Both the position numbers and the translations under genes were made by a program. A stretch of DNA of 64,000 nt from Escherichia coli (GTDB lineage Bacteria; Pseudomonadota; Gammaproteobacteria; Enterobacterales; Enterobacteriaceae). The notes beneath the pieces were generated by a model, which was not told the origin of the DNA, did not search any database, and saw only the letters and a list, made by a program, of their open reading frames with translations. The DNA lies in NCBI RefSeq assembly GCF_013122565.1, contig NZ_CP053258.1. One strand, given 5' to 3'. Positions 5,160 to 63,000 of the stretch are shown in pieces. The stretch's first letter is position 1. Each line of letters opens with the position of its first letter.

Positions 5160-5678
5160 ATGTCCATCCGTTTTGCCCGCAAAGCCGATTGCGCTGCTAT
5201 TGCGGAAATTTTTAACCACGCCGTGTTGTATACGGCGGCTATCTGGAATGACCAAACGGTGGATGCAGATAACCGCATTGCCTGGTTTGAAGCGCGGACC
5301 ATAGCAGGTTATCCGGTGCTGGTAAGTGAAGAAGATGGCGTAGTGACGGGATATGCCTCGTTTGGCGACTGGCGTAGTTTCGATGGTTTTCGCCATACCG
5401 TGGAACATTCGGTTTATGTCCATCCCGATCATCAGGGCAAAGGTCTGGGGCGTAAATTGTTAAGCCGATTGATTGATGAAGCGCGGGATTGCGGGAAGCA
5501 TGTCATGGTCGCCGGGATCGAATCGCAAAACCAGGCCTCGCTGCATCTGCACCAGTCGCTGGGATTTGTCATCACCGCACAAATGCCGCAGGTAGGCACT
5601 AAATTTGGTCGTTGGCTGGATCTGACATTTATGCAGTTGCAACTCGACGAACGCACTGAACCGGACGCGATTGGATGA
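5160..5678 (+). CDS. mnaT: GNAT family L-amino acid N-acyltransferase MnaT (YncA)
   Basis: Internal start MSIRFARKADCAAIAEIF within ORF 4926..5678 gives 172 aa; GNAT acetyl-CoA motif region QGKGLGRKLL; divergent from curA. Confidence 0.85.
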   Translation: MSIRFARKADCAAIAEIFNHAVLYTAAIWNDQTVDADNRIAWFEARTIAGYPVLVSEEDGVVTGYASFGDWRSFDGFRHTVEHSVYVHPDHQGKGLGRKLLSRLIDEARDCGKHVMVAGIESQNQASLHLHQSLGFVITAQMPQVGTKFGRWLDLTFMQLQLDERTEPDAIG

Positions 5679-6124
5679 ATCAGTCGCTCACCCTTGCCTT
5701 TTTGATTGCCGCCGGAATTGGTCTGGTAGTCCAGAACACGCTGATGGTGCGCATCACCCAGACCTCCTCTACCATTCTCATCGCCATGTTGCTGAACTCA
5801 CTGGTGGGGATTGTGCTCTTTGTTTCTATTTTATGGTTTAAACAAGGTATGGCGGGGTTTGGCGAACTGGTGTCCAGCGTGCGCTGGTGGACACTTATAC
5901 CTGGCTTGCTGGGATCGTTTTTTGTCTTCGCCAGTATCAGCGGATATCAGAATGTGGGAGCGGCGACAACTATTGCAGTACTGGTCGCCAGCCAGCTGAT
6001 TGGCGGTCTGGTGCTGGATATCTTCCGCAGTCATGGCGTACCACTACGGGCGTTGTTCGGCCCAATTTGTGGCGCAATTTTACTTGTGGTTGGCGCCTGG
6101 CTGGTGGCCAGACGCTCATTTTAA
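5675..6124 (+). CDS. ydcZ: Inner membrane protein YdcZ (DMT-like, DUF606)
   Basis: 149-aa strongly hydrophobic ORF; its start overlaps the mnaT stop by 4 nt (ATGA), suggesting translational coupling. Confidence 0.85.
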   Translation: MNQSLTLAFLIAAGIGLVVQNTLMVRITQTSSTILIAMLLNSLVGIVLFVSILWFKQGMAGFGELVSSVRWWTLIPGLLGSFFVFASISGYQNVGAATTIAVLVASQLIGGLVLDIFRSHGVPLRALFGPICGAILLVVGAWLVARRSF

Positions 6125-6358
6125 TCACAGGATGGTGCCGCCTTTGGTTAACTGTTCGTGGCGCGCTTCCATATCTTCTTTATGCTTGCGACCGTGATGG
6201 GCGATCGCTGTGCGCAGACGTTGCTGCTGGGTGTAGCGATCTTCCCGACTTAACTCCGCGTCATCGCTCAGGGCGATTAATAATTCGTTCATATGGGCAA
6301 TGACGCTCTCTTCAATCGCGGCATCCACGCGCGCGATGACTTCATCCAGATGCGACAT
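6125..6358 (-). CDS. ydcY: Small uncharacterised protein YdcY
   Basis: 77-aa ORF MSHLDEVIARVDAAIEESVIAHMNELLIALSDDAELSREDRYTQQQRLRTAIAHH...; size and position match ydcY. Confidence 0.8.
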   Translation of the reverse strand: MSHLDEVIARVDAAIEESVIAHMNELLIALSDDAELSREDRYTQQQRLRTAIAHHGRKHKEDMEARHEQLTKGGTIL

Positions 6359-48237: not shown

Positions 48238-51200
48238 TTAGAACGTTTTCTTGAAGTTCAGCATCACGCCTTTGTCGCTGATGCCGTCCTCTTTCCAGTT
48301 GTACGCATCCAGGTTCAGTGAGCTTTCTTTGCTGCTGTACTTCACGCCGACGCTTGCCAGGCTGTTGATGCCGCCACCCTTCTGACCGTCATCGACGTTA
48401 AAGTGCTGACTGCCTGCGCCTGCCAGGCTTGCCGTGCGCTGGCTCTTCGCGTAGCTCAGATTCGGCCCGCCTTCCAGCGTGGCGCTAGCGCTCCAGCCGT
48501 CTTTACCTGCGTAATCCAGTTTCAACCCGACGATGCTGTCCACCGCCGTTTCGCTGCCACTGTTCATATTCAGGTTAAAGTCTCCGGCATTGCGCTCCTG
48601 ATAGCCACCTTCCAGTGTGTGACGCAGTTTAACACCCGCATATGGCGTAACCTTCAGTCCTTCGCTCGGTTCGAAAGTCTTCGCCCCTTCGCTGCGGAAC
48701 TCCAGGTACTGCTGCTTCACGTCGGTATCAGCCGTTTTGTTTGTGTTGCTAAATGCAATCGAACGGCTGCTGTCAAGGTTGTGAACGTCATAACGCAATG
48801 CGTTATTCCAGTTCATGCCGTTGTCGAAGGACATCTGATGTTTCAGGCCAAAGAACTGGCTGTAGCCGCCGGTTACGCCGTTGTCGCCCGCTTTCTGCGC
48901 ACCATCGCCATCCAGACGCGCAATACCGTATTCCAGGCTCATGCTCTGGCTTTCGCTCAGGTCGATGGTTTTACGCAATGCCAGCATGTCGTACTCGGTA
49001 TTATTACCTAACTCGGCACGCGGATCGCCTTTCGCCACCACGTTGAACGCCAGACCATTGCCCACTTTCGGCGCGGCATCCGCCAGCATACTAAAGCGGT
49101 TGCTTAACACGCGCGCTTCACGGAACACCGTGGTCGCCAGGCTACCGCTGACCTGTTTCAGGGCGCTGTTCAGTTCGGCGGTGGTGCCAACGTTCAGGCT
49201 GGTATACAGCTCGTTGTTGGTGTAACCCGCATCCAGTGCCTTCGCGACGTCATTTACCGAAGCATCGGTTGCGACATCGGTGTAGGCATTTTTGCTCATG
49301 GTAACGTCAACGTTACCGTTGGCATCGGTGCTGCCTTTGGCGTTCCATACGACCGTAGAGGAAACGATGTTGTCCACACCGCTGATGTTTTCGCCTTTGA
49401 ATACATCGTTAACGACAACGGTGGTATCCGCTGTTCCTGCACTAAACCCGGCATTAACACTCACGTTGTCGCCAATCACCAGGTTATTCGCGCTGAGCGT
49501 ACCGGAACTCCCGTCGCTATTGGTACCGATGGTATAGTTGCTCAGCAGTTGCGGCGCATTTGAATCAGCAGGCGGGGTTGGAACATCACCTTGTGACGGC
49601 GTAGTTGATGCGTCTGGTACGGTGATATCCACAGTACCGTTGTGGTCGTTTTGTGTACCCGTTGTTCCAGGAGCATAAATATCGCATCCGGTATCACACA
49701 GCAGGTTAATTTCACCGTTGTTAATGATGGCTTTCGTTTGCCCACCAAACGCCCAGGAATTATCGGCATAGACATTAATCACACCCGTTTGCGTGTTATT
49801 AATTGTTGTTTCCCGACCATTGCCTTTAATACCAATTAAACCTTCGCCATTGGTTCCATCCTGTTGCCCCTGCTCAGTACCCACATTAATGGTGCCACTG
49901 TTCACCAACTGAACAACATAACTGGTTGTGCCGCCACTGATGCCCACCGCATTATCGCCCTGAACATTAATAACGCCAGCGTTAGCAAAGTTATAACCTC
50001 GTCCTAAATCAACCAACGGAGCCGCAGGGTTAATACCATTGATTACCCCTGTTTCTGTGTTCCAGATCCATTTACCTTTACTGTTCGAGCCAGTACTTTC
50101 GGTTTTGATCGCGCTGTAGCCATTTGTAGCCGTAATGGTTCCACGGTTAACCTGAGATACAGAATCCCCGGTTCTGGTTACATGAATAATCGCGTTTTCA
50201 CCGCCCGTTACCGCATTACCACTATTCGTCAGGGTCGCACCCGCTTCGTTGAAGAACAGGAAACTCCCGTTGATGAGTGATTGCCCATCTTCGGTCACCG
50301 TCATTTCACCGGTATTCACTACGTTCTGTTGATAGCTGTTGCCGGTAATTGAACCGCTGAACTCACCTTCGTTAAAGAAGGAAACCGCACCATTCAACGT
50401 AAGGAGATCTGTTGTCATGCTCCCGGTTTCACGGTTATAGATCGTGGTTTTGCTGTTAATACTGTCAACATCCAGGGTCCCACTATTCTCCAACCCTTGA
50501 GTGACACTCAGTTCGCCATTGATGGTCAGACTGGCATCAGGTTGGTTATATAACCAGCCGTTTGCATCAACATTGCCATTAAGCGTTTCATCTCCGTAGT
50601 TTGCCAGGTTATTAACAACGACAAAACCGTCGGTAGTTGTGGTTTTGCTGATGCTCTCCCCGCTACCAGACAACTCGCTAAGAACATCTTTGTCATCCGG
50701 CGTCACCCCCATATGGGAATCACTTTCATCCATTGGATTACCGAAAAGAGTAATTTTTCCGTAGTTGAGAATGGTACCGGTGCTATCTTTATAAAACGCC
50801 TGACCAATATCAGTATTAATATTAATCACACCATCCTGGTCATTAATGGCCAGACCACCTTGAATTGCCCCCATCGCGAACAACTGGTTATCTTGCTGCT
50901 TCGTCACACCCTCATCGGCGGTGAGATTGATCGTTCCCTGGTTGACAACGGTCCCGCCGCTCATCGCCAGCATACCAAAACCTTCGTTATTAACATTGAT
51001 GGTTCCGGTATTTAACCCACTGGCATCGCCATTTCCGATATCGGTTGACCCTACAACAACGCCACCGGACATAAGATAAGGATGGGGTGGTTGCCAGTAG
51101 GATTTACTAATGATATTGCCATCTTCATCAAGTTCGGGAACAAAACCATCGACATTGATTTCCCCGGCATTTGTCGCCGTGCCTTTAGATGCTGCAGCAG

Positions 51201-54200
51201 CATAGTTTCCCGCGCCTTGCAAATTAATGGTGGCGTCAGATTCATTCACTGTGATGCCGTAATCACTGGCCCACAGCCCGTAGTTGACACCGAAATACCA
51301 TTTCAGGGGGGATTCAGACATCCCGCCTGCGTATGCAGGTGTCGTTACAGAGATCAGATTAATAACCCCACCCGACGCATTCGTAACCTGAGAATTCTGG
51401 CCACGAGCACGCATTGTCCCCCCCCTGGAGAATTCCTCACCGCTAGGTTTGACATTAATAATTCCACTATTAGTGATATGTGCACCATTGTTAGCCGTCA
51501 TTAAATCCTGGCTATCCATTGTGTTAATCACACCTTTGTTTTCAACGCTGGACTGACTGCCAATAGCAGAAATAAGCGCACGTTCAAAGAAGAAAAAGTC
51601 GGTTTCCCTGGCTTTACTGGATATATCCGTTACAGCGTTTTCATCAAATATAACTTTTCCACCGTCCGCCACCGAGACCAACGTAAAGGCACCCAATTCC
51701 TGACGGGTATCCATTGTCGAATGACCACTAATGTTAACGGTATTGTCACCAATAACCGATACGCCATCTATAACATGTGCGGCGCTATCACCACTAATAT
51801 TAATACCGCCATCAATATTAACGGTATTCTTCTCGCCAGAAACAATTATGCCACTCACTAAATTTTCCTGGTGTAGCAGCTCCCCTTGTACGGTGATATC
51901 AACATGGCCACTAATATCTACAGTGTTATTTTTACCACTAATCGTTCCACCTGTTAATGCTGTGATTTGTGCATCAGGGTTATCGCCGAGGATGGAATTA
52001 ACATTGATGCTTCCGTCAACGCTAATATGGCTGTCATTACCCGTCAGACTGAAACCTGTAGCACCCGGCGCATTGCCCTCGCTGTCTGGTTGCTGGAATA
52101 CGTTAATATCGCCGCTTAATTGAACCTGTTCACGGTCACCCGCAATGGATACCCCAGTTCCGTACCGTGAAACATCAATTTCGCCCACGTTACCGAAAAC
52201 TTCATCATCACCATCAATCAGAATCCCCACAGAACCGGAATCCGTGACAACAATTTTGCCTTTATTACTTAACTGCGAGTTATTACCGGCAATATCAATA
52301 CCCGTTGCCCCTCCGCTGACGTAGAGGTCACCTTCCTGGCTAATTGTTGCATTGTGACCGGCAACTTTTGTCCCTACTGCATTCGCACCGTCAACCGTCA
52401 TATCCCCGGCGATATTCATCTCATTGCCATCGCCAGTGATGGTTATACCTGTGGCATTTTCACCCAAAATATTAAGATCATAGGTTGCCAGGGTTATACT
52501 ATTGTTGTCGCCGATAATCTCCATGCCAGTCGTATCGTCTTTAACCAGCATTGAGCCAGCAAGAGAAATACTGCTGCTGTCCCCGGTGATTTTTACACCA
52601 GTACCGCTATTTGTTGTGGTGATGTCTCCCACATTGACAAAGGTAGTATTATCACCATTGATTAACACGCCGTAGGGGTTTCCGTCACTGTCCGCCTGAC
52701 CTACATTGATATCACCAATGTTCATAAAGGTTGTTTGATCGCCATCCAGCAATACACCGATGGAAGTATCATCCACCACAGTAACATTACCCTTATTACT
52801 GACGAGAGTACCTTTACCCTCGGCGTCAATACCGTGTGCGCCACCGCTGACGTATAAATCACCCTGTTGCCTTACAATGGCATCTTCGCCGATAATTTTT
52901 GATCCCGTTGAATTTGCACCATCGACGGTCATGTCGCCTTTGATTTCAATGCGGGCATCATCCCCTGTAATCACACTCCCCGTGCCACCATTCGTGATTT
53001 CGACATCACCAACGGTGTTCAACGTAGTACGATCGCCATTGACAATAACGGCCGTACCACCATCGACATCTGTCTCACCATTATTAGTAATGGTGATATC
53101 GTCACCGGTAAGAATACCTACCACCGAACCTTCACCAATCGCGGTAGTTTGACCGTCGTTGTTCAGGGTGATGTCGTTACCGTCAACGTTTATCACAACG
53201 CCGCCATTCAGCGCGATGTTGCCGCCATGGTCGGTAATAGTGGCATCGTTAATATGGAAATGTTCGCCAGTTGTACCGTCTGCGGTGGTGAGTGACTCTA
53301 TGATTATTTCGATTTTTCCCGCTTCGTCATAGCGCCAGGTGGAGGTTCCGCTCGGATTGACGCCATTGAACGAAGCAGTGTTAGCCGCCTCGTCGACTAA
53401 CCAATCCTTTACGATTGTGGTAGTGCCGCCAGGTCCGGTAAGCGTATAGCTGCCATCGTCATTTTTGGTGTAGGTAAAGGTGGTATCACGTAATTTTAGG
53501 GTCTTCGCGTCCTGATCCCAGGTGACATCGTTTTTATAGACCACTGGATCGTGTTTAACTGGCGTGTCATCGCCACCGTCATCCGGGGTGTCATCGCCGC
53601 CATCATCTGGCGGGACGGGGGTGTCGCCGCCATCATCCGGCGGGACTGGTGTGTCGCCGCCATCATCCGGCGGGACTGGTGTATCACCGCCATCATCCGG
53701 CGGGACTGGTGTGTCGCCGCCATCATCCGGCGGGACTGGTGTGTCACCGCCATCATCCGGCGGGACAGGTGTATCACTGCCATCGTCTGGCGGGACTGGC
53801 GTGTCGCCGCCATCATCCGGCGGGATGGGTGTATCACCGCCATCATCCGGCGGGACGGGTGTATCACCGCCATCATCCGGCGGGACTGGCGTGTCGCCGC
53901 CATCATCCGGCGGGACGGGTGTATCACCACCATCATCCGGCGGGACTGGCGTGTCGCCGCCATCATCCGGCACCGGAGACGAATCGTCATGATGATTATT
54001 ATTATCGTGGAGTGCATATACTGCGACACCTGTGACTGCCGCTGCCAGCCCCACTGCAGCCCAGGGTAATAACTCATTATCTTCAACTGATTTACACTCT
54101 GCCGGCAGCTTTTCTAGCTGTTCTTTACTTAGTGATTTAATATTGGCCGGGCAGCTAATCTTGCTGGATTTACGAGATTCATCCGATGTTTCCGCTATCG

Positions 54201-54273
54201 ACGTATCTGCCGCCCATGTCTGGCTGCTTAACGCCATTGCAACACAGACACTGAGCAATTTTTTCCTTTGCAT
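48238..54273 (-). CDS. ydbA: YdbA, giant type Va autotransporter (AIDA-like), intact 2011-aa reading frame
   Basis: Single 6036-nt ORF: signal peptide, Pro/Asp/Gly decapeptide repeat stalk, very long Gly/Thr/Asn-rich beta-helical passenger with pervasive internal repeats, and a C-terminal beta-barrel translocator ending MLNFKKTF. Confidence 0.9.
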   Translation of the reverse strand: MQRKKLLSVCVAMALSSQTWAADTSIAETSDESRKSSKISCPANIKSLSKEQLEKLPAECKSVEDNELLPWAAVGLAAAVTGVAVYALHDNNNHHDDSSPVPDDGGDTPVPPDDGGDTPVPPDDGGDTPVPPDDGGDTPVPPDDGGDTPIPPDDGGDTPVPPDDGSDTPVPPDDGGDTPVPPDDGGDTPVPPDDGGDTPVPPDDGGDTPVPPDDGGDTPVPPDDGGDDTPDDGGDDTPVKHDPVVYKNDVTWDQDAKTLKLRDTTFTYTKNDDGSYTLTGPGGTTTIVKDWLVDEAANTASFNGVNPSGTSTWRYDEAGKIEIIIESLTTADGTTGEHFHINDATITDHGGNIALNGGVVINVDGNDITLNNDGQTTAIGEGSVVGILTGDDITITNNGETDVDGGTAVIVNGDRTTLNTVGDVEITNGGTGSVITGDDARIEIKGDMTVDGANSTGSKIIGEDAIVRQQGDLYVSGGAHGIDAEGKGTLVSNKGNVTVVDDTSIGVLLDGDQTTFMNIGDINVGQADSDGNPYGVLINGDNTTFVNVGDITTTNSGTGVKITGDSSSISLAGSMLVKDDTTGMEIIGDNNSITLATYDLNILGENATGITITGDGNEMNIAGDMTVDGANAVGTKVAGHNATISQEGDLYVSGGATGIDIAGNNSQLSNKGKIVVTDSGSVGILIDGDDEVFGNVGEIDVSRYGTGVSIAGDREQVQLSGDINVFQQPDSEGNAPGATGFSLTGNDSHISVDGSINVNSILGDNPDAQITALTGGTISGKNNTVDISGHVDITVQGELLHQENLVSGIIVSGEKNTVNIDGGINISGDSAAHVIDGVSVIGDNTVNISGHSTMDTRQELGAFTLVSVADGGKVIFDENAVTDISSKARETDFFFFERALISAIGSQSSVENKGVINTMDSQDLMTANNGAHITNSGIINVKPSGEEFSRGGTMRARGQNSQVTNASGGVINLISVTTPAYAGGMSESPLKWYFGVNYGLWASDYGITVNESDATINLQGAGNYAAAASKGTATNAGEINVDGFVPELDEDGNIISKSYWQPPHPYLMSGGVVVGSTDIGNGDASGLNTGTINVNNEGFGMLAMSGGTVVNQGTINLTADEGVTKQQDNQLFAMGAIQGGLAINDQDGVININTDIGQAFYKDSTGTILNYGKITLFGNPMDESDSHMGVTPDDKDVLSELSGSGESISKTTTTDGFVVVNNLANYGDETLNGNVDANGWLYNQPDASLTINGELSVTQGLENSGTLDVDSINSKTTIYNRETGSMTTDLLTLNGAVSFFNEGEFSGSITGNSYQQNVVNTGEMTVTEDGQSLINGSFLFFNEAGATLTNSGNAVTGGENAIIHVTRTGDSVSQVNRGTITATNGYSAIKTESTGSNSKGKWIWNTETGVINGINPAAPLVDLGRGYNFANAGVINVQGDNAVGISGGTTSYVVQLVNSGTINVGTEQGQQDGTNGEGLIGIKGNGRETTINNTQTGVINVYADNSWAFGGQTKAIINNGEINLLCDTGCDIYAPGTTGTQNDHNGTVDITVPDASTTPSQGDVPTPPADSNAPQLLSNYTIGTNSDGSSGTLSANNLVIGDNVSVNAGFSAGTADTTVVVNDVFKGENISGVDNIVSSTVVWNAKGSTDANGNVDVTMSKNAYTDVATDASVNDVAKALDAGYTNNELYTSLNVGTTAELNSALKQVSGSLATTVFREARVLSNRFSMLADAAPKVGNGLAFNVVAKGDPRAELGNNTEYDMLALRKTIDLSESQSMSLEYGIARLDGDGAQKAGDNGVTGGYSQFFGLKHQMSFDNGMNWNNALRYDVHNLDSSRSIAFSNTNKTADTDVKQQYLEFRSEGAKTFEPSEGLKVTPYAGVKLRHTLEGGYQERNAGDFNLNMNSGSETAVDSIVGLKLDYAGKDGWSASATLEGGPNLSYAKSQRTASLAGAGSQHFNVDDGQKGGGINSLASVGVKYSSKESSLNLDAYNWKEDGISDKGVMLNFKKTF
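53565..53975 (-). repeat. About 13 to 14 near-identical 30-bp tandem repeats inside ydbA, encoding PVPPDDGGDT units
   Basis: Directly visible periodicity: (ggtgtcgccgccatcatccggcgggactgg)n with only a few substitutions; in-frame units (PVPPDDGGDT, PIPPDDGGDT, PVPPDDGSDT) at about residues 100 to 240. Confidence 0.9.
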
Positions 54274-54674
54274 ATGAAATTCCTCATAAATAGATGCTTA
54301 CGCAGCCCAGATAAACTGCACAGGGTTAAATAGTTAAAAATATTCGAAATCTGGATATTGTTTTTAACAGAATAAATATATTGATTTAGTGAATGTATTT
54401 ATTCATTAAGTCAATATATCTTTTCTTTAATTTATATTTTTAACGCATTTATTTCAACTTAAAATATGGCGTAATTGAGATTAAATCCGATAACACCGAT
54501 GAATTAAATAATGCAATTAATTCATGAAATAAATAAATTATCATGTGAATGAAGCATTCATCATCGGCATCTATATGAAATTAAATGAAAAATAATTCTC
54601 TATAGCATTGCAGTTAATATTGAATATTTCAGGAGGTACAACCAGGCAGATTTTTCTCGACGAATACCGACTTA

Positions 54675-55001
54675 TTATTTTTGCAACCACATTCCGTTTA
54701 TCCCGCGAATGTATTCTCCCGGCTTAGCTTTTGCTACCAGTTTCTGCCCCGCCAATTTTTCCACTTCCGCAACCGGCAGATTATTTTTCATGGCGAGTTG
54801 TTGATAGCTCTTATTACGCGATTCATTAATCCTTTTGACTAACATCTGTGTTTCGGTATCCGCCTTTAATGCAACCAGATAACCATTATACGTTTCGCCA
54901 ACACGCCCCTGAGTTCGAGCGTCATCCAGCGTCAGAGCCATCGCACTGGTGCTAAATAAGGCATTAATGACAAAACACAGTATTAAACTTCTCTTCATCA
55001 T
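54675..55001 (-). CDS. ydbL: Periplasmic protein YdbL (DUF1318)
   Basis: ORF 54675..55079 trimmed to the MMKRSLILCFVINALFSTSAMA start (108 aa) with a signal peptide; third gene of ydbH-ynbE-ydbL. Confidence 0.8.
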   Translation of the reverse strand: MMKRSLILCFVINALFSTSAMALTLDDARTQGRVGETYNGYLVALKADTETQMLVKRINESRNKSYQQLAMKNNLPVAEVEKLAGQKLVAKAKPGEYIRGINGMWLQK

Positions 55002-55005
55002 CGCC

Positions 55006-55191
55006 TCAGAAAAGATCGCTACGAGTTTCAAGCAGCTCTTCGACATCTTTGTCTGCCTTGATGATGATCTCATGCTCAATTTTAACGTTCATATTGATAG
55101 TGATCGGTTCCTTAGGTGCAGCGACTTCAATGCGAGGCGTACAGCCAACCAGCATAAAAGATGACGTCAACGCAGCCAGTAAAATTTTCAT
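55006..55191 (-). CDS. ynbE: Small lipoprotein YnbE (61 aa)
   Basis: MKILLAALTSSFMLVGCTPRIEV... with a lipobox (LVGC); its start overlaps the ydbH stop by 4 nt. Confidence 0.8.
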   Translation of the reverse strand: MKILLAALTSSFMLVGCTPRIEVAAPKEPITINMNVKIEHEIIIKADKDVEELLETRSDLF

Positions 55192-57827
55192 TGTTTTTCC
55201 TCACACTCTTTTCCTTGCGGACAGTCATTTCCCGGCAGACGTGCGTTCTGCTCCAACCATGCCTGGAGATTATCGCCAAAGCGTAAACTGCGCCACAGCG
55301 TAAAAATATTCTCTTCATGATGGTAATTAAGGTTTACCGTACCGCTTTTACCATCAACGCGACTGGTACCTGTAATGTTGGCCTGCATGGTTAATAAACC
55401 GAGATTATCTAAATTAATATTTGTCGATGAACGGCTAATTTCCATATAGCGCAACCAGTTAATTGCTGAACCCGCAGTCATATTGTCTTTCACCACCGCA
55501 TCTGCGGTGTCTTTATCCAGCCGCAAGGTCATTGGCCCGCTATTTGCCAGCCAACCATCTTTCACAATCCATTTTTCGTTGTTTAGCCATAACGGCAATG
55601 CACCACTAAATGCCCCGGACATGGCGAATTGTTTCGGATTGATGGCGCTAACCAGTTCGCTGGATGAGAGATTATTCAGCCGCAACAGCGCCGGGTCATG
55701 TTGCGGCATACGTAATTGTTTCATCAGCACGTTACCGCCTAACACATCGACGCTAACATCAGTCAACAGCAATGGTTCTTCTTCTGTCCACGGATAGCGC
55801 CCTTGCAAATCAGCCGTAATATTTTTCGCTGTCACCAGATTAATCACTTCGGCAATTCGCAACGTAACGGGGCCGCGAGTCCCCAGATGCCAGGCTCCAT
55901 CGGCAAAACGGAAAGGCAGGACAAAATCGACACCGTTAACCTGATTATCTGGCATCCAGGCACTACCGCCTTTCAACACGCCGTGCCCTCCCGCGCGGAA
56001 TCCTTGTTCAGGCGCAGCAGAAAATGCAACCTGAGCATACAGTTCACCATCGCGTAAGTTCATCTTCCAGTCGGGTGGCACCAGCGGCTGGAATACAGTC
56101 AGTGATTGTTTAGGCCACCAGGCGTTACCGCGCAGACGAATACCGTCCCAGCGACCATTTACCCGAACCGGGCCAATCTCACCAGCATGTAAATCGCCTT
56201 TAAAGAGGAAATAGGTAGGATCGCGCCCATCGACACTAAATTTTAAGGTTGATGGCGGTAACAGACTGCCGCCAGTGAACAGCGTTTGCCCGGCGTCCAG
56301 TGACAGCGCGCCGCTGAAGGAGGGATGCTGTGCGTCACGTACCCAGACGACGGGCTTGTCGAGAATTAGTCGCGGCTTTTCTACCGTCATCGTACCGTAT
56401 TGTAACTGGTCGAAACCGGTGGAGAGATCGGTCAGCGTAATCGTGCTGTCATGCCACTCACCTTTTCCTGCGACATCCCAGGTGGCATTCATCGGTGTAA
56501 AACTGCCTTTTCCCCAGTAGCGCCACTGCCAGCGGCCAGCGTCAGGGAGAAAATCATTCGCCAGCCCATCCATATGCAGCACGAAATCGCCCAGTTCATT
56601 TTCATGCGCCTGCAAGATGGCCTGCAAACGTCCGTCAACACCACGTTGGGTGACTTTTACACCCGCTAAAGGCCAGCGGATTTCATCGATGTCCAGCGAA
56701 TCGATGACTCTTCCCTTCGAACGTAATAACGCGCCTGGCTCAAAGGCTAACGTTGGGTCAGTCAGACTTCCACTTAGCTGCGCGGGTAAGCGGGCATATA
56801 AAATGAGGTCCGCCTGTTTCGCTTCACCGGTCAGCTGCAGAGGCAGCTGACTGTTATCCATGCTTAATTTTCCTGGGCCAAAATTAAGCACCGCGTTGCC
56901 CTTACCCGCTTGCCCCTGGGTCAGCACACTCAGTCGTCCGCTGACCACTGCGTTCTCGATACCTGCCTGCCAGTTGTCGACTTTGACACCCAGTCGTCCA
57001 CTCAAAGGAAAACCTACATACGGCCAGCTCCAGCGACCATCGCTTACCGTCAATTGTTGACGAGTAATTTGCCACGGCAAATCGAGCAACGGATCGCCGT
57101 TATCCCGTGCCAGCACAATCAATTGCCCGCTATTTTCCTGCCAGTCCAGCTCGGCATCCACCAGTGACGGTTCCTGCGGCAAGTTTAACGTCGCAGTAGC
57201 ATGCCCACTTACAGGAAGTCCATCCGGCACTAGCGGCATAGTAAATTCCCCCACCAGTTTTACCGGCGGCTGATTTTCAAACGCGGCGACATCCAGTTCG
57301 CTGACTGTAAGTTGTTGCCCTTTCAACTGGCCTTGAAATTTAACTTTTTCGCCCTGATAACGCAGTTGCTGGATATCAGAGGTTAATGCGAGAGAGAGTT
57401 TTCCCTGCCATTCCTGCCAAGGAGAAAAAATCAGTTTATCGATATTGATCCAGGTGTTAGGCAGCATGGACTGCCACTGCGCGAGGGTTTTTGGAGCGGC
57501 TGGCGATTGCTCCGTCTGCGGCAATTTCGCCAGACAAGCAGAATCAAGTTCTACCGTGCCGACGTTCAATAACCAGCGGCTGGGATGTGAAAGGCTGGCG
57601 TTGGTGATATGCGCAAGCTGACAATCTCCCACCAGATAACGGAGATCGGGAATGATTAAACCTTTACGCGTAATGCGTGGGCTTTCATCTAATGCAATAC
57701 GTGTCCCGAGCGGTAGCCAGATGCCCGCCAGCGTGGGAACCCACAGCCCGAGCGTCATCAGCAGCGTCAACGGCACAAGAATAATCAGTAATAACAGCGC
57801 GAGAACGGCTTTATATTTACCCAGCAT
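55188..57827 (-). CDS. ydbH: AsmA-like large envelope protein YdbH
   Basis: 879-aa ORF with an N-terminal membrane anchor (MLGKYKAVLALLLLIILVPLTLLMTLGLWV) followed by a long predicted periplasmic domain. Confidence 0.85.
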   Translation of the reverse strand: MLGKYKAVLALLLLIILVPLTLLMTLGLWVPTLAGIWLPLGTRIALDESPRITRKGLIIPDLRYLVGDCQLAHITNASLSHPSRWLLNVGTVELDSACLAKLPQTEQSPAAPKTLAQWQSMLPNTWINIDKLIFSPWQEWQGKLSLALTSDIQQLRYQGEKVKFQGQLKGQQLTVSELDVAAFENQPPVKLVGEFTMPLVPDGLPVSGHATATLNLPQEPSLVDAELDWQENSGQLIVLARDNGDPLLDLPWQITRQQLTVSDGRWSWPYVGFPLSGRLGVKVDNWQAGIENAVVSGRLSVLTQGQAGKGNAVLNFGPGKLSMDNSQLPLQLTGEAKQADLILYARLPAQLSGSLTDPTLAFEPGALLRSKGRVIDSLDIDEIRWPLAGVKVTQRGVDGRLQAILQAHENELGDFVLHMDGLANDFLPDAGRWQWRYWGKGSFTPMNATWDVAGKGEWHDSTITLTDLSTGFDQLQYGTMTVEKPRLILDKPVVWVRDAQHPSFSGALSLDAGQTLFTGGSLLPPSTLKFSVDGRDPTYFLFKGDLHAGEIGPVRVNGRWDGIRLRGNAWWPKQSLTVFQPLVPPDWKMNLRDGELYAQVAFSAAPEQGFRAGGHGVLKGGSAWMPDNQVNGVDFVLPFRFADGAWHLGTRGPVTLRIAEVINLVTAKNITADLQGRYPWTEEEPLLLTDVSVDVLGGNVLMKQLRMPQHDPALLRLNNLSSSELVSAINPKQFAMSGAFSGALPLWLNNEKWIVKDGWLANSGPMTLRLDKDTADAVVKDNMTAGSAINWLRYMEISRSSTNINLDNLGLLTMQANITGTSRVDGKSGTVNLNYHHEENIFTLWRSLRFGDNLQAWLEQNARLPGNDCPQGKECEEKQ

Positions 57828-58034
57828 GGGTAGTTAATATCCTGATTTAGCGAAAAATTAAGCATTCAATACGGGTATTGTGGCATGTTTAACCGTTCAG
57901 TTGAAGGTTGCGCCTACACTAAGCATAGTTGTTGATGAATTTTTCAATATCACCATGACTTTCAATTATATTTGAAATTTTGTAAAATATTTTTAGTAGC
58001 TTAAATGTGATTCAACATCACTGGAGAAAGTCTT

Positions 58035-59024
58035 ATGAAACTCGCCGTTTATAGCACAAAACAGTACGACAAGAAGTACCTGCAACAGGTGAACGAGTCC
58101 TTTGGCTTTGAGCTGGAATTTTTTGACTTTCTGCTGACGGAAAAAACCGCTAAAACTGCCAATGGCTGCGAAGCGGTATGTATTTTCGTAAACGATGACG
58201 GCAGCCGCCCGGTGCTGGAAGAGCTGAAAAAGCACGGCGTTAAATATATCGCCCTGCGCTGTGCCGGTTTCAATAACGTCGACCTTGACGCGGCAAAAGA
58301 ACTGGGGCTGAAAGTAGTCCGTGTTCCAGCCTATGATCCAGAAGCCGTTGCTGAACACGCCATCGGTATGATGATGACGCTGAACCGCCGTATTCACCGC
58401 GCGTATCAGCGTACCCGTGACGCTAACTTCTCTCTGGAAGGTCTGACCGGCTTTACTATGTATGGCAAAACGGCAGGCGTTATCGGTACCGGTAAAATCG
58501 GTGTGGCGATGCTGCGCATTCTGAAAGGTTTTGGTATGCGTCTGCTGGCGTTCGATCCGTATCCAAGTGCGGCGGCGCTGGAACTCGGTGTGGAGTATGT
58601 CGATCTGCCAACCCTGTTCTCTGAATCAGACGTTATCTCTCTGCACTGCCCACTGACACCGGAAAACTACCATCTGTTGAACGAAGCCGCCTTCGATCAG
58701 ATGAAAAATGGTGTGATGATCGTCAATACCAGTCGCGGTGCATTGATTGATTCTCAGGCGGCAATTGAAGCGCTGAAAAATCAGAAAATTGGTTCGTTGG
58801 GTATGGACGTGTATGAGAACGAACGCGATCTGTTCTTTGAAGATAAATCCAACGACGTAATTCAGGATGACGTATTCCGTCGCCTGTCTGCCTGCCACAA
58901 CGTGCTGTTTACCGGGCACCAGGCATTCCTGACAGCAGAAGCTCTGACCAGTATTTCTCAGACTACGCTGCAAAACTTAAGCAATCTGGAAAAAGGCGAA
59001 ACCTGCCCGAACGAACTGGTTTAA
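58035..59024 (+). CDS. ldhA: Fermentative D-lactate dehydrogenase (D-2-hydroxyacid dehydrogenase family)
   Basis: 329-aa ORF with the NAD-binding GXGXXG motif (GVIGTGKIGVA); divergent from ydbH. Confidence 0.9.
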   Translation: MKLAVYSTKQYDKKYLQQVNESFGFELEFFDFLLTEKTAKTANGCEAVCIFVNDDGSRPVLEELKKHGVKYIALRCAGFNNVDLDAAKELGLKVVRVPAYDPEAVAEHAIGMMMTLNRRIHRAYQRTRDANFSLEGLTGFTMYGKTAGVIGTGKIGVAMLRILKGFGMRLLAFDPYPSAAALELGVEYVDLPTLFSESDVISLHCPLTPENYHLLNEAAFDQMKNGVMIVNTSRGALIDSQAAIEALKNQKIGSLGMDVYENERDLFFEDKSNDVIQDDVFRRLSACHNVLFTGHQAFLTAEALTSISQTTLQNLSNLEKGETCPNELV

Positions 59025-59134
59025 TCTTGCCGCTCCCCTGCATTCCAGGGGAGCTTATTCAGATAATCCCCAAAGACCTTTCATCCTCTATTCTTAAAAT
59101 AGCCCTGAGTCAGAAACTGTAATTGAGAACCACA

Positions 59135-59557
59135 ATGAAGAAAGTAGCCGCGCTTGTTGCGCTCAGCCTGCTGATGGCGGGATGTGTAAGTAATGACAAA
59201 ATTGCTGTAACGCCAGAACAGTTACAGCATCATCGTTTTGTGCTGGAAAGCGTAAACGGTAAGCCCGTGACCAGCGATAAAAATCCGCCAGAAATCAGCT
59301 TTGGTGAAAAAATGATGATTTCCGGCAGCATGTGTAACCGCTTTAGCGGTGAAGGCAAACTGTCTAATGGTGAACTGACCGCCAAAGGGCTGGCCATGAC
59401 CCGTATGATGTGCGCTAACCCGCAGCTTAATGAACTCGATAACACCATTAGCGAAATGCTGAAAGAAGGTGCACAAGTGGATCTGACCGCGAACCAGTTA
59501 ACGCTGGCAACCGCGAAACAGACATTAACTTATAAGCTAGCGGATTTAATGAATTAA
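59135..59557 (+). CDS. hslJ: Heat-shock lipoprotein HslJ
   Basis: Internal start MKKVAALVALSLLMAGCVSN within ORF 59123..59557 (140 aa) with a lipobox (LMAGC). Confidence 0.85.
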   Translation: MKKVAALVALSLLMAGCVSNDKIAVTPEQLQHHRFVLESVNGKPVTSDKNPPEISFGEKMMISGSMCNRFSGEGKLSNGELTAKGLAMTRMMCANPQLNELDNTISEMLKEGAQVDLTANQLTLATAKQTLTYKLADLMN

Positions 59558-59820
59558 TAGCTGCCACAGCTTCCGGCGGCAAGTGACTGTTCGCTACAGC
59601 GTTTGCCGTTGGGTAATGCACACATCCCAATCGCCGTACCATCCAGTTGACGGGCAACAGAAAGCGAACCGCCGATCATTGCACAATTTGCTTCTCCACT
59701 ACTGGACATCGACGCTTTTAAACCTGGCGCTACGTGCGCCGCAGTCGCCTGCTGAACAGGTTCACTACTACACGCCGACAACAATAAAGCGGCACCCCCT
59801 ACCCAAAACGCTGCTCGCAT
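59554..59820 (-). CDS. ydbJ: Small lipoprotein YdbJ (DUF333)
   Basis: 88-aa ORF with a lipobox (LLLSACSSE); its stop overlaps the convergent hslJ stop. Confidence 0.75.
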   Translation of the reverse strand: MRAAFWVGGAALLLSACSSEPVQQATAAHVAPGLKASMSSSGEANCAMIGGSLSVARQLDGTAIGMCALPNGKRCSEQSLAAGSCGSY

Positions 59821-60093
59821 CTTTTCTTCCTCTGATCTTCAAGCCAAACGACACCGCCATAAATAATAGGCAGCACAGAGGGCGACGTCGAGAGCTGTCC
59901 TGCGCGTTGCCCCGCATTTTTACTTTTTTATGGCTATTTTTTTGCCCTCTGTTTGATCAAAACATTCATTACGCTGATGTGGGGGACACAAAAGCGAAAA
60001 TGCAGAAGAAAGCCATTTGCTAAAATTGAAAGATTACTACTGGGCGCGCAGCAATTTCGTGCGCCCCTCATTTGCGCAATGTAAGGGTGTCAT

Positions 60094-63000
60094 ATGATTA
60101 CTATTGACGGTAATGGCGCGGTTGCTTCGGTGGCGTTTCGCACCAGTGAAGTTATCGCCATCTACCCTATTACCCCCAGTTCCACGATGGCAGAACAGGC
60201 AGATGCCTGGGCCGGAAACGGCTTAAAGAACGTTTGGGGAGACACACCACGCGTGGTTGAAATGCAGTCGGAAGCGGGTGCTATCGCTACCGTGCATGGC
60301 GCTTTGCAGACGGGTGCCCTTTCAACATCGTTTACGTCATCGCAGGGTTTGCTGCTGATGATACCGACGCTGTACAAACTGGCAGGCGAACTCACACCGT
60401 TTGTCCTGCATGTAGCGGCACGTACCGTTGCCACACATGCACTCTCTATTTTTGGCGATCATTCCGACGTTATGGCGGTGCGCCAGACGGGTTGCGCGAT
60501 GTTGTGTGCAGCAAACGTCCAGGAAGCGCAAGACTTTGCTCTCATTTCGCAAATCGCGACGCTGAAAAGCCGCGTGCCATTTATTCATTTCTTTGATGGT
60601 TTCCGCACGTCCCACGAAATCAATAAAATTGTCCCGCTGGCCGATGACACGATTCTTGATCTCATGCCGCAGGCCGAAATTGATGCTCATCGCGCCCGGG
60701 CGCTCAACCCGGAACATCCGGTGATCCGCGGTACGTCCGCCAATCCTGACACTTATTTCCAGTCACGCGAAGCCACCAACCCATGGTACAACGCAGTCTA
60801 TGACCATGTTGAACAGGCGATGAATGATTTCGCTGCCGCGACAGGTCGTCAGTATCAGCCGTTTGAGTATTACGGGCATCCGCAAGCGGAACGGGTGATA
60901 ATCCTGATGGGCTCTGCCATTGGCACCTGTGAAGAAGTGGTTGATGAATTGCTAACCCGTGGCGAAAAAGTCGGCGTGCTGAAAGTTCGCCTGTACCGCC
61001 CCTTCTCCGCCAAACACTTGCTACAAGCTCTGCCGGGATCCGTACGCAGCGTGGCGGTACTGGACAGAACCAAAGAACCCGGTGCCCAGGCAGAACCGCT
61101 CTATCTGGATGTAATGACCGCACTGGCAGAAGCCTTTAATAATGGCGAGCGCGAAACTCTGCCCCGTGTCATTGGTGGGCGCTATGGTCTTTCATCCAAA
61201 GAATTTGGCCCGGACTGTGTACTGGCGGTATTTGCCGAGCTCAACGAGGCTAAACCGAAAGCACGCTTTACGGTTGGTATTTACGATGATGTAACCAATC
61301 TGTCACTACCGTTGCCGGAAAACACCCTGCCAAACTCGGCGAAACTTGAAGCCTTGTTTTATGGCCTTGGTAGTGATGGCAGCGTTTCCGCGACCAAAAA
61401 CAATATCAAGATTATCGGTAATTCCACGCCGTGGTACGCACAGGGCTATTTTGTTTACGACTCCAAAAAGGCGGGCGGCCTGACAGTTTCTCACCTTCGC
61501 GTGAGCGAACAGCCGATTCGTTCCGCTTATCTCATTTCCCAGGCTGATTTTGTTGGCTGCCACCAGTTGCAGTTTATCGATAAATATCAGATGGCTGAGC
61601 GTTTAAAACCTGGCGGCATTTTCCTGCTCAACACGCCATACAGCGCAGATGAAGTGTGGTCGCGCTTGCCGCAAGAAGTTCAGGCCGTGCTAAACCAGAA
61701 AAAAGCGCGCTTCTATGTGATTAACGCAGCGAAAATCGCCCGCGAATGTGGGCTGGCGGCCCGTATTAATACCGTCATGCAGATGGCTTTTTTCCATCTG
61801 ACGCAAATTCTGCCTGGCGATAGCGCCCTCGCAGAATTGCAGGGTGCGATTGCCAAAAGTTACAGTAGCAAAGGCCAGGATCTGGTGGAGCGCAACTGGC
61901 AGGCTCTGGCGCTGGCGCGTGAATCCGTAGAAGAAGTTCCGTTGCAGCCGGTTAATCCGCACAGCGCCAGTCGACCGCCTGTGGTTTCCGATGCCGCTCC
62001 TGATTTCGTGAAAACCGTAACCGCTGCGATGCTCGCCGGGCTTGGTGATGCCCTCCCCGTTTCGGCGCTGCCGCCAGACGGCACCTGGCCGATGGGCACC
62101 ACGCGCTGGGAAAAACGCAATATCGCCGAAGAGATCCCCATCTGGAAAGAGGAACTCTGTACCCAATGTAACCACTGCGTCGCTGCTTGCCCACACTCCG
62201 CTATTCGCGCAAAAGTGGTACCACCTGAAGCGATGGAAAACGCCCCTGCCAGCCTGCATTCGCTGGATGTGAAATCGCGTGATATGCGCGGGCAGAAATA
62301 TGTCTTGCAGGTGGCACCGGAAGATTGCACCGGTTGTAACCTGTGCGTCGAAGTTTGCCCGGCGAAAGACCGTCAGAATCCAGAGATTAAAGCCATCAAT
62401 ATGATGTCTCGCCTGGAACATGTCGAAGAAGAGAAAATCAATTACGATTTCTTCCTCAACCTGCCAGAAATCGACCGTAGCAAACTGGAACGTATTGATA
62501 TTCGTACATCGCAGCTGATTACACCGCTGTTTGAATATTCCGGTGCTTGTTCCGGTTGTGGCGAGACGCCGTATATTAAATTGCTGACTCAGCTCTATGG
62601 CGACCGGATGTTGATCGCTAACGCCACCGGCTGTTCTTCAATTTATGGCGGTAACCTGCCCTCCACACCGTATACTACCGATGCCAATGGTCGTGGACCG
62701 GCATGGGCGAACTCGCTGTTTGAAGATAACGCCGAATTTGGCCTGGGTTTCCGCCTGACGGTCGATCAACACCGTGTCCGGGTGCTGCGTCTGCTGGATC
62801 AATTTGCCGATAAAATCCCTGCGGAATTACTGACGGCGTTGAAATCAGACGCTACGCCAGAGGTTCGTCGAGAACAGGTCGCAGCTTTACGCCAGCAACT
62901 CAACGATGTTGCCGAAGCACATGAACTGCTGCGTGACGCAGATGCTCTGGTGGAAAAATCAATCTGGCTGATTGGTGGCGACGGCTGGGCTTACGATATC

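Follow-up and report, generated by a model that had tools for sequence, protein, structure and literature searches.

The window, that is, the whole 64,000-nucleotide stretch of Escherichia coli DNA analyzed here, carries on its minus strand the E. coli ydbH-ynbE-ydbL operon. We put the probability at about 90% that this is the correct reading of the locus, with YdbH and YnbE forming a bridge between the two membranes and YdbL restraining YnbE. The operon and its interpretation are already published and tested, and there is nothing new in finding it in one more E. coli genome. How phospholipids reach the outer membrane long remained a gap in the understanding of the Gram-negative envelope. Three redundant routes are now proposed, YdbH-YnbE among them, so the system is an important one, already recognized and followed up experimentally. 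The added value of the present analysis is comparative: the ydbH-ynbE pair is conserved, the presence of ydbL tracks the tail of YnbE, and diverged ydbL alleles of E. coli keep their interface residues. These points could steer mutational or chimera work on the YdbL-YnbE interaction. The gene structure, protein families, fold type, conserved coupling signals, YnbE strand and YdbL interface residues come from our analysis; the protein interactions, synthetic lethality and translational coupling are taken from the literature.

[quoted passage not shown] This synthetic lethality was established for the YdbH of K-12, which is 98.6% identical to that of the window. YdbH and the outer membrane lipoprotein YnbE were described in PNAS in 2024 as a bridge from the inner to the outer membrane formed through beta-strand augmentation, and their interaction was demonstrated by in vivo cross-linking (PMC11126948). 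The same study found YdbL to be a chaperone-like, dispensable modulator that is toxic in excess, and noted that the modeled YdbH-YnbE complex, at about 180 Å, is shorter than the periplasm of about 250 Å. The crystal structure of YdbL and its binding to the C-terminal helix of YnbE were presented in a 2026 bioRxiv preprint (10.64898/2026.03.16.712125). In P. aeruginosa, YdbH also depends on YnbE (PMC12447247). What the original prediction for this DNA says of gene identities, topology and an AsmA-like bridge role agrees with the published accounts (PMC8593681, PMC11126948, 10.64898/2026.03.16.712125). The complex models, made with AlphaFold-Multimer, and the synthetic lethality with yhdP and tamB that it had proposed as checks are in published work already.

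The mechanism can be outlined as follows. YdbH would be held in the inner membrane by its single N-terminal helix, with a nearly all-beta domain bearing a hydrophobic groove extending into the periplasm. YnbE would be synthesized by ribosomes that terminate and reinitiate at the ATGA; it would receive its lipid at Cys17 and then be sorted to the outer membrane. Residues I30–I38 of YnbE would pair with the last strand of YdbH, lengthening the groove and fastening the bridge at its outer membrane end. Along the YdbH-YnbE groove, phospholipids may then slide between the membranes, in a role redundant with those of YhdP and TamB. Secreted YdbL would bind YnbE at its C-terminal helix and tail and curb its runaway, amyloid-like multimerization, thereby keeping YnbE available for YdbH. 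That lipid moves through YdbH-YnbE, and in which direction, is what the field infers.

Gene ydbH (nt 55188–57827, minus strand) encodes a protein of 879 residues and ynbE (nt 55006–55191, minus strand) one of 61 residues. The ORF listing and the sequence bear out the predicted overlap of 4 nt between them. The overlap is an ATGA (nt 55188–55191, minus strand), the translational coupling site, whose 4 bases are common to both genes; the ATG of ynbE lies at nt 55191–55189 and the TGA of ydbH at nt 55190–55188. A GAGGA Shine-Dalgarno motif for ynbE is located within the 3′ end of ydbH (nt 55198–55202, minus strand), 6 nt before the ATG. Gene ydbL (nt 54675–54998, minus strand), recognized by its match to Pfam PF07027, encodes 107 residues. 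It follows ynbE after a spacer of 7 nt (nt 54999–55005, minus strand). The third gene of the original prediction is thus real, yet it falls outside the span assigned to the operon there, whose end is the stop codon of ynbE. In the ORF listing ydbL appears as a 134-residue frame with a TTG start. The start is likely the second ATG, at nt 54998. It is located 5 nt past a GAGG (nt 55004–55007) that shares bases with the stop codon of ynbE and serves as the ribosome-binding site of ydbL. The start in RefSeq and in K-12 is also at 54998, with an alternative ATG at 55001. RefSeq annotates the three genes alike in near-identical E. coli loci, and with the family matches given below the gene calls are no product of chance.

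Experiments published in 2019 established that ydbH and ynbE are translationally coupled and that the GAGGA motif is essential for ynbE reinitiation (PMC6728339). Folding of the RNA around the ydbH/ynbE junction (−99 to +30) gave a minimum free energy of −27.4 kcal/mol, compared with an average of −31.8 kcal/mol for shuffles (z = +1.23), so RNA structure at the junction is no greater than expected by chance. The argument of a stable structure at the translation start (PMC6728339) is therefore not reproduced by this comparison of the junction with shuffled sequences.

The closest known system is the K-12 operon itself (b1381–b1383; Kumar, Davis and Ruiz, PNAS 2024; De'Ath et al., bioRxiv 2026). 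The window shares with it the gene order and the ldhA neighbor, as well as the spacing of the genes, with the ATGA overlap followed by 7 nt between ynbE and ydbL. YnbE shows no difference (100% identity at the DNA and protein levels), and YdbH differs by 12 conservative substitutions (98.6% protein identity). In contrast, the ydbL of the window is a different allele, and downstream of it the window has an intact ydbA where K-12 has the feaR-feaB-tynA-paa island.

YdbH matches the NCBIfam YdbH equivalog NF007971 with 1397.9 bits (cut-off 824) over residues 1–878 of 879, and Pfam PF11739 at 6.9e-290 over residues 14–862. The sites of gain-of-function changes, T303, G305, G308 and G456, carry no substitutions relative to K-12. 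The structure prediction suggested as a check gave an AlphaFold2 model with a mean pLDDT of 86.4, in which an N-terminal helix is followed by about 55 beta-strands. The helices in the model span residues 2–24 and 26–37, and the top 19-residue Kyte-Doolittle window covers residues 8–26 (mean 2.95). Codons 2–37 (nt 57717–57824, minus strand) would therefore encode the inner membrane anchor, as indicated by the model and the hydropathy. Beyond the helix, 61% of the protein is strand. The alternation of hydrophobic and polar residues within the strands exceeds that in shuffled sequences (z = 4.9; 0 of 1000 reach the observed value), as measured along the sequence. By model and hydropathy, YdbH is accordingly predicted to consist of a single N-terminal anchor and an elongated beta-rich domain with amphipathic strands, in line with the anchor and long periplasmic domain that had been proposed for it.

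The model resembles YdbH-family models in the AlphaFold database with TM-scores of 0.8–0.9. Against solved structures it found nothing beyond generic beta-sheet matches. The weak, non-specific ones include LptD and the lipid-binding sheet of ApoB100; these are compatible with a lipid-binding beta-sheet, although they are not specific. Profile comparison with hhalign aligned YdbH weakly to K-12 TamB (probability 9.8%, N-terminal helix region only) and to K-12 AsmA (49.9%, N-terminal region only).

YnbE matches Pfam PF13617 at 3.7e-16. For YnbE and YdbL, NCBIfam yielded no model match at E ≤ 0.01 despite the Pfam matches. The lipobox of YnbE, read from the translation, is L14-V15-G16-C17 (nt 55141–55152, minus strand), with Cys17 as the predicted lipidated residue. 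The next residue is Thr and not Asp, so that no inner membrane retention signal can be read there. Sorting of YnbE to the outer membrane is consistent with the established Lol rule. The outer membrane location is also stated in PMC11126948. The strand proposed to extend the YdbH groove is I30–I38, ITINMNVKI in the numbering of PMC11126948 (nt 55078–55104, minus strand); hydrophobic and polar residues alternate in it, and the alternation was computed for this segment as well. Residues K45–F61 (nt 55009–55059, minus strand) comprise the C-terminal helix and the RSDLF tail, the target of YdbL according to the 2026 preprint, where the binding region was mapped by NMR and native mass spectrometry (10.64898/2026.03.16.712125). 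The PF13617 match, the LVGC lipobox, the ATGA coupling to ydbH and the I30–I38 strand place YnbE in its lipoprotein family. Its assignment as a lipoprotein in the original prediction is upheld by the family match, by the lipobox cysteine and by the identity to K-12 YnbE. A fusion of the C-terminal 290 residues of YdbH, a (GGGGS)x6 linker and mature YnbE was modeled with a 20-sequence paired alignment. The resulting single-chain model has a low mean pLDDT of 42.6, and in it YnbE is unstructured except for its helix.

The YdbL of the window matches PF07027 (DUF1318) at 2e-29 and the crystal structure 28oj at 1.6e-34 over the mature residues. Its signal peptide ends in A-M-A, which gives a mature protein starting from L22, the same as the protein that was crystallized. 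With a cleavable signal peptide, similarity to 28oj and conserved functional residues, it is predicted to be a genuine member of the YdbL family. The gene is nevertheless strongly diverged from that of K-12: identity is 68.5% for DNA, 63.6% for the protein and 68.6% for its mature part, and the C-terminal Phe108 of K-12 is missing. The divergence starts exactly at the ynbE stop codon, with a sharp drop of identity at the 7-nt spacer. The allele is rare. Only 116 of 5411 E. coli genomes have it at 90% identity or more, and the K-12-type allele is carried by 88% of the genomes.

Such divergence raises the question of whether this ydbL is a decaying or functionally irrelevant remnant beside a locus that works as a two-gene system. 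The low identity would fit a remnant, as would the absence of ydbL beside ynbE in 5 Enterobacteriaceae species and in 6/6 evaluable distant relatives. However, the frame is intact and equipped with a signal peptide, a ribosome-binding site and the PF07027 match, and more than 100 genomes maintain the allele at 95–100% identity. The YnbE tail bound by YdbL is also unchanged in the window. Thirteen of the 16 mutagenized residues are identical (L24, R28, E35, Y40, N58, R61, Y65, L68, N72, K86, L87, W104 and K107), the remaining three being changed by E60S, I79V and R90K. Positions 60 and 90 are tolerant sites, since E60A/D and R90K were tolerated in experiments; I79A, the only substitution tried at I79, was non-functional (10.64898/2026.03.16.712125). 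All experimentally essential residues are thus retained save I79, and its replacement by valine is conservative. The copy in the window is apparently functional despite its strong divergence, as far as the residues tell, and a remnant is very unlikely. Since about 31% of the mature residues differ from those of the K-12 protein that was studied, functional equivalence of the window YdbL is something that we infer. Separately, three apparent YnbE-YdbL fusion proteins (P0095, P0104 and P0115) were rejected as domain fusions; they result from frameshift or read-through of E. coli ynbE into ydbL, with the ydbL signal peptide still inside.

Of 5426 complete E. coli genomes, 5417 carry the ydbH-ynbE-ydbL locus. 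The search for related loci with a 21-sequence alignment gave matches that were all from Enterobacteriaceae. The adjacency of ydbH and ynbE holds in 80/80 Enterobacteriaceae species and in 7/7 evaluable distant relatives. Adjacency, overlap and Shine-Dalgarno motif are retained in the 80 Enterobacteriaceae species and in relatives of 26–49% identity; a 4-nt overlap occurs among the distant relatives as well. Among the 78 Enterobacteriaceae species scored for the overlap, it is ATGA in about 61, TAATG in 16 and of the +2 type in one, and GAGGA or AAGGA is retained before ynbE. The lipobox was found by automatic search in 78 of 80 YnbE orthologs, with mostly Thr after the cysteine, and the strand motif ITINMNV[KR]I occurs in 80/80 species. 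The spacer between ynbE and ydbL is 7 nt in 57 of 74 loci when the ydbL start is inferred by homology; scanning for the first start codon instead, which is affected by tandem ATG codons, gives values of 1, 4 or 7 nt.

Gene ydbL behaves differently from the other two. No ydbL lies beside ynbE in 5 of the 79 Enterobacteriaceae species or in any of the 6 evaluable distant loci. The conserved unit is the ydbH-ynbE pair and not the triplet. The predicted fixed three-gene arrangement holds within E. coli and in the majority of Enterobacteriaceae; outside the family it does not. Likewise, the suggestion that the accessory proteins are integral to the machine is right for YnbE and fails for YdbL, which is dispensable and absent from the loci just mentioned. 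The loss of ydbL is accompanied by a change in YnbE. The motif RSD[LI]F, located at the C-terminus or a few residues away from it, occurs in 75/75 species outside the group scored as lacking ydbL (74 that have the gene, and L027, where the space is too short to tell), and it is lost or altered in 5/5 Enterobacteriaceae species without ydbL.

These data suggest, with somewhat less than an even chance of being right, that ydbH-ynbE is an ancient portable module and ydbL a later, lineage-restricted accessory that co-evolved with the RSDLF tail beside a recombination-prone zone. The zone would comprise the fea-paa island together with ydbA, the variable autotransporter. In E. coli, ydbL occurs as at least three deeply diverged haplotypes beside a near-invariant ynbE, that of the window being the rarest, and the position of ydbL at the edge of the zone would account for them. 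Among the YdbL proteins sampled from Escherichia, Citrobacter and Salmonella, none is closer to that of the window than the others. The window haplotype may have been imported from a donor outside the sample, or it may be an old one kept by balancing. If this reading is true, the haplotype is a natural experiment on the freely variable surface positions of YdbL.

Upstream, the divergent intergenic region between ldhA and ydbH (nt 57828–58034) presumably contains the ydbH promoter, although a scan for the sigma-70 consensus found no site in this spacer. An Rfam scan of nt 53500–60200 gave no family match. Downstream, an intact ydbA of 2011 residues lies on the same strand, 401 nt past ydbL. The terminator scan found nothing terminator-like from ydbL up to ydbA, and the spacer is AT-rich with a promoter-like site of its own; counts in the promoter and terminator consensus scans were not above shuffle expectation (3 versus 6.1 and 5 versus 4.0).

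This layout, shared with O157:H7, where ydbL and ydbA are also adjacent, could mean that YdbH-YnbE mainly serves outer membrane protein assembly or secretion, here of the autotransporter YdbA, and not lipids. TamB, a paralog of YdbH, has been tied to autotransporter assembly, and a role in outer membrane protein assembly or secretion was what was first proposed for TamAB. Yet in K-12 the fea-tynA-paa island separates ydbL from ydbA, and the K-12-type allele prevails at 88% by a count of the allele alone. Moreover, ydbA is a pseudogene in K-12, and YdbH-YnbE nonetheless sustains the growth of a yhdP tamB mutant (PMC11126948, PMC8593681). No autotransporter Pfam domain is annotated beside the distant ydbH-ynbE loci examined, and the AT-rich spacer with its own promoter-like site also speaks against such a role. 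A main role in autotransporter assembly is hence highly improbable. Several YdbH homologs still bear the source name "Dicarboxylate transport", from the old database label "DctA-YdbH / Dicarboxylate transport", but a dicarboxylate transporter is refuted by the architecture of one N-terminal helix and an elongated all-beta periplasmic domain, which is no multi-pass transporter, and runs counter to the current Pfam name of PF11739, "Intermembrane phospholipid transport protein YdbH", and to genetics indicating outer membrane lipid homeostasis (PMC8593681).

The YdbH-YnbE bridge can be compared with several known systems. In TamA-TamB, as in YdbH-YnbE, an inner membrane AsmA-like groove protein needs an outer membrane partner from the same operon, the two genes overlap by 4 nt, and the function is redundant with that of YdbH. 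The partner TamA, however, is an Omp85 beta-barrel encoded upstream, whereas that of YdbH is a 61-residue lipoprotein encoded downstream, and TamB has 1259 residues against 879. YhdP is likewise AsmA-like and redundant in outer membrane lipid homeostasis (PMC8593681). Unlike YdbH, it is thought to span the periplasm alone, reaching the outer membrane by its own C-terminal hydrophobic helices. [quoted passage not shown] The eukaryotic repeating beta-groove proteins VPS13 and ATG2 and the Lpt bridge share the concept of a continuous hydrophobic groove across two membranes, but differ in membranes, partners and energetics; our searches gave no significant sequence or global structure match between YdbH and repeating beta-groove or Lpt proteins. 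For the restraint of YnbE multimerization by YdbL, an analogy to CsgC-CsgA was drawn by the authors of PMC11126948. The two systems share no homology, and YdbL binds the C-terminal helix of YnbE, not the amyloid core.

Gene ydbH encodes a protein of 879 residues (ORF listing, 55188..57827, minus strand) and ynbE one of 61 residues (ORF listing, 55006..55191, minus strand). The two genes share the four bases ATGA at 55188–55191 of the minus strand, confirming the predicted 4-nt overlap, and the ynbE ATG is preceded, at a distance of 6 nt, by a GAGGA motif. As also predicted, ydbL follows ynbE; it starts 7 nt past the ynbE stop codon and encodes 107 residues from 54998 to 54675 on the minus strand. 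A GAGG 5 nt ahead of its ATG overlaps the ynbE stop, and the start at 54998 is the one used in RefSeq and in K-12. The original prediction had placed the three genes in 55006–57827; ydbH and ynbE do lie within this span, but ydbL falls outside it, and the span must reach 54675. The upstream neighbours of ydbH are ldhA and hslJ, which are divergently transcribed.

YdbH matches the NCBIfam YdbH equivalog end to end with 1398 bits (cut-off 824). It is also a member of Pfam PF11739 (6.9e-290), the family named 'Intermembrane phospholipid transport protein YdbH'. YdbL matches PF07027/DUF1318 and the deposited crystal structure 28oj (1.6e-34). The locus DNA finds a match in 5417 of the 5426 complete E. 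coli genomes, whose annotations name the genes ydbH, ynbE and ydbL. Five of the 5417 matches are in records labelled plasmid and not chromosome.

It was reported that the 4-nt overlap, tested directly, couples ydbH and ynbE strongly by termination-reinitiation, and that the Shine-Dalgarno motif is essential to this translational coupling (PMC6728339). The RNA fold at the junction is no more stable than its shuffles. The promoter and terminator scan of the locus gave nothing significant, nor did the Rfam scan yield a significant match.

The AlphaFold2 model of YdbH, built from 37 diverse homologues, has a mean pLDDT of 86.4 and resembles YdbH-family models of the AlphaFold database with TM-scores of 0.8–0.9. 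Its N-terminal helix (residues 2–37) followed by about 55 beta-strands supports, at the level of a model, the proposed N-terminal anchor and long periplasmic domain. Compared with shuffled versions, the strands show a much stronger alternation of hydrophobic and polar residues (z = 4.9; none of 1000 shuffles gives as high a value), as a one-sided hydrophobic groove requires. The predicted structure is thus beta-rich, with amphipathic strands consistent with a groove. The single-chain prediction of a fused YdbH-YnbE had a confidence too low for use, and comparisons with solved structures and with TamB/AsmA sequences did not independently establish that YdbH belongs to the AsmA-like clan. YnbE is a lipoprotein as proposed, with the lipobox LVGC, in which Cys17 is followed by Thr, and a match to PF13617, 'YnbE-like lipoprotein'. 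Its residues I30–I38 (ITINMNVKI) alternate between hydrophobic and polar exactly as published for the groove-extending strand. The signal peptide of YdbL ends in AMA, which agrees with a predicted periplasmic location, and its mature form begins at the same residue as the crystallised protein.

YdbH and YnbE form a bridge from the inner to the outer membrane via beta-strand augmentation; the support comes from AlphaFold-Multimer together with genetics and in vivo cross-linking (PMC11126948). YdbL restrains amyloid-like multimerisation of YnbE and is not essential, and its excess is lethal in a yhdP tamB mutant (PMC11126948). A 2026 preprint gives the structure of YdbL, its binding to the C-terminal helix of YnbE and a mutational map of the interface. 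The requirement for YnbE also holds in P. aeruginosa (PMC12447247). The AsmA-like bridge interpretation is therefore backed by published experiments. The finding of a ydbH-ynbE-ydbL system is correct. The system was known before and has been characterised experimentally, and every check suggested with the original prediction has already been published. What is new is comparative: the ydbH-ynbE core pair, the presence of ydbL tracking the YnbE tail, and a rare diverged ydbL haplotype in the window.

A search with a YdbH profile retrieved 80 Enterobacteriaceae species; in every one of them ynbE directly follows ydbH, and YnbE has the strand motif ITINMNV[KR]I without exception. A lipobox was detected automatically in 78 loci. 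Of their junctions, about 61 are ATGA overlaps, 16 are TAATG overlaps and one is +2; GAGGA or AAGGA is present at the scored junctions. Gene ydbL was scored in the 79 loci with sufficient flanking sequence, and follows ynbE in 74 of them. The other five (L037, L047, L049, L067 and L070; 5/79) have no HMM match within 3 kb downstream. They belong to Enterobacter sp. ENT03, UBA3516, Phytobacter massiliensis, UBA7338 and Pseudescherichia vulneris, which keep ydbH-ynbE (about 5550–6200 in each locus). The C-terminal RSD[LI]F motif region of YnbE is the binding target of YdbL according to the 2026 preprint. The motif occurs in each of the 75 species that were not classed as lacking ydbL, namely the 74 with ydbL and that of L027, a locus with no room to tell. 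Of the five species that lack ydbL, four have lost the motif, with C-termini replaced by ERQNH, EQQEIKARE, NERK and KEQK, and one has it altered from F to L. These five absences may go back to just one or two independent events, and the genomes could carry ydbL at another site.

Nine loci from eight distant relatives of YdbH (26–49% identity) were also searched. Gene ynbE follows ydbH in 7 of 7 evaluable relatives, usually with the 4-nt overlap; neither an annotated DUF1318 gene nor a YdbL HMM match occurs in any locus. The proposed fixed three-gene arrangement thus holds for ydbH-ynbE (80/80), but not for ydbL, missing in 5/79 and in the distant loci. Given the absences of ydbL and the pattern of the YnbE tail, it is the ydbH-ynbE pair that makes up the conserved machine. 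Gene ydbL is a lineage-restricted accessory, in agreement with its genetic dispensability.

In four distant-relative loci (one NCBI genome and three metagenome contigs), a PF27206 (HI_1241) gene of about 273 residues ends on the first base of ydbH (L086 1677–2501; L087 1677–2501; L088 1578–2402; L092 131–949). These loci carry ynbE after ydbH, without ydbL, and the PF27206 product may be a different accessory protein.

YnbE of the window is identical to that of K-12, and YdbH shows 12 conservative differences that leave the published gain-of-function sites untouched. In 60-nt bins the window is 90–100% identical to K-12 (mostly 97–100%) across ydbH and ynbE. Identity drops to 62–77% at the ynbE/ydbL boundary, exactly from the ynbE stop codon, and similarity vanishes past ydbL. 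The two ydbL genes are 68.5% identical in DNA, 63.6% in protein and 68.6% in mature protein. A ydbL match is present in 5411 of the 5426 complete E. coli genomes. Of these, 4776 have the K-12 type (at least 90% identity), 375 the O157 type (at least 99%) and just 116 the window type (90% DNA identity or more). The mature window-type YdbL is 69–74% identical to the K-12, O157, E. albertii, E. marmotae, Citrobacter and Salmonella types, which are 71–95% identical to one another. In a collection of 5.8 billion proteins, the named sources of YdbL at least 90% identical are E. coli or multispecies Enterobacteriaceae; some entries lack a source name. One retrieved protein, P0014, is a chimera with a window-type N-terminus and a K-12-type remainder, indicating recombination within ydbL. 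Three apparent YnbE-YdbL fusions with both domains (P0095, P0104 and P0115; 155–173 residues) were rejected as frameshift or read-through products.

Of the 16 mutagenised residues of YdbL, 13 are identical in the window. E60S and R90K sit where E60A/D and R90K were tolerated, and I79V is a conservative change. Judged from its sequence, the window allele is probably functional and compatible with the unchanged YnbE. Its most likely origin is recombination, or hitch-hiking beside a variable surface-protein locus.

That locus is ydbA, a gene for a BigA-type autotransporter of 2011 residues (48238–54273, minus strand, as ydbL). It is intact and directly downstream of ydbL in the window and a pseudogene in K-12. 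It contains about 13 tandem PPDDGGDTPV repeats, with a GC content of 0.64 around 53500–54000. The spacer between ydbL and ydbA (54274–54674) is AT-rich (GC about 0.30) and holds a promoter-like site at 54457–54429 on the minus strand. Since the scan detected no terminator-like site downstream of ydbL, transcription from ydbHEL may read through into ydbA. In K-12 the feaR-feaB-tynA-paa island lies between ydbL and ydbA; it is absent from the window and from O157. Heterogeneity in this zone had been described earlier (PMC4951805).

Relative to O157:H7 the divergence sets in sooner, already within the 3′ end of ydbH, and extends across ynbE, ydbL and ydbA. Identity falls from about 99% to about 83% in the ydbH 3′ end and ynbE (55000–55650), and is 61–73% in ydbL and mostly 55–80% in ydbA; the spacer has no real homology (36–48% with many gaps). 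From the ydbH 3′ end to ydbA, old haplotypes form a mosaic whose breakpoints differ by lineage. For window 40000–64000, the best match among the 5426 complete E. coli genomes is 96.7% identical over 87%, a low value which indicates that the window lineage is poorly represented among them.
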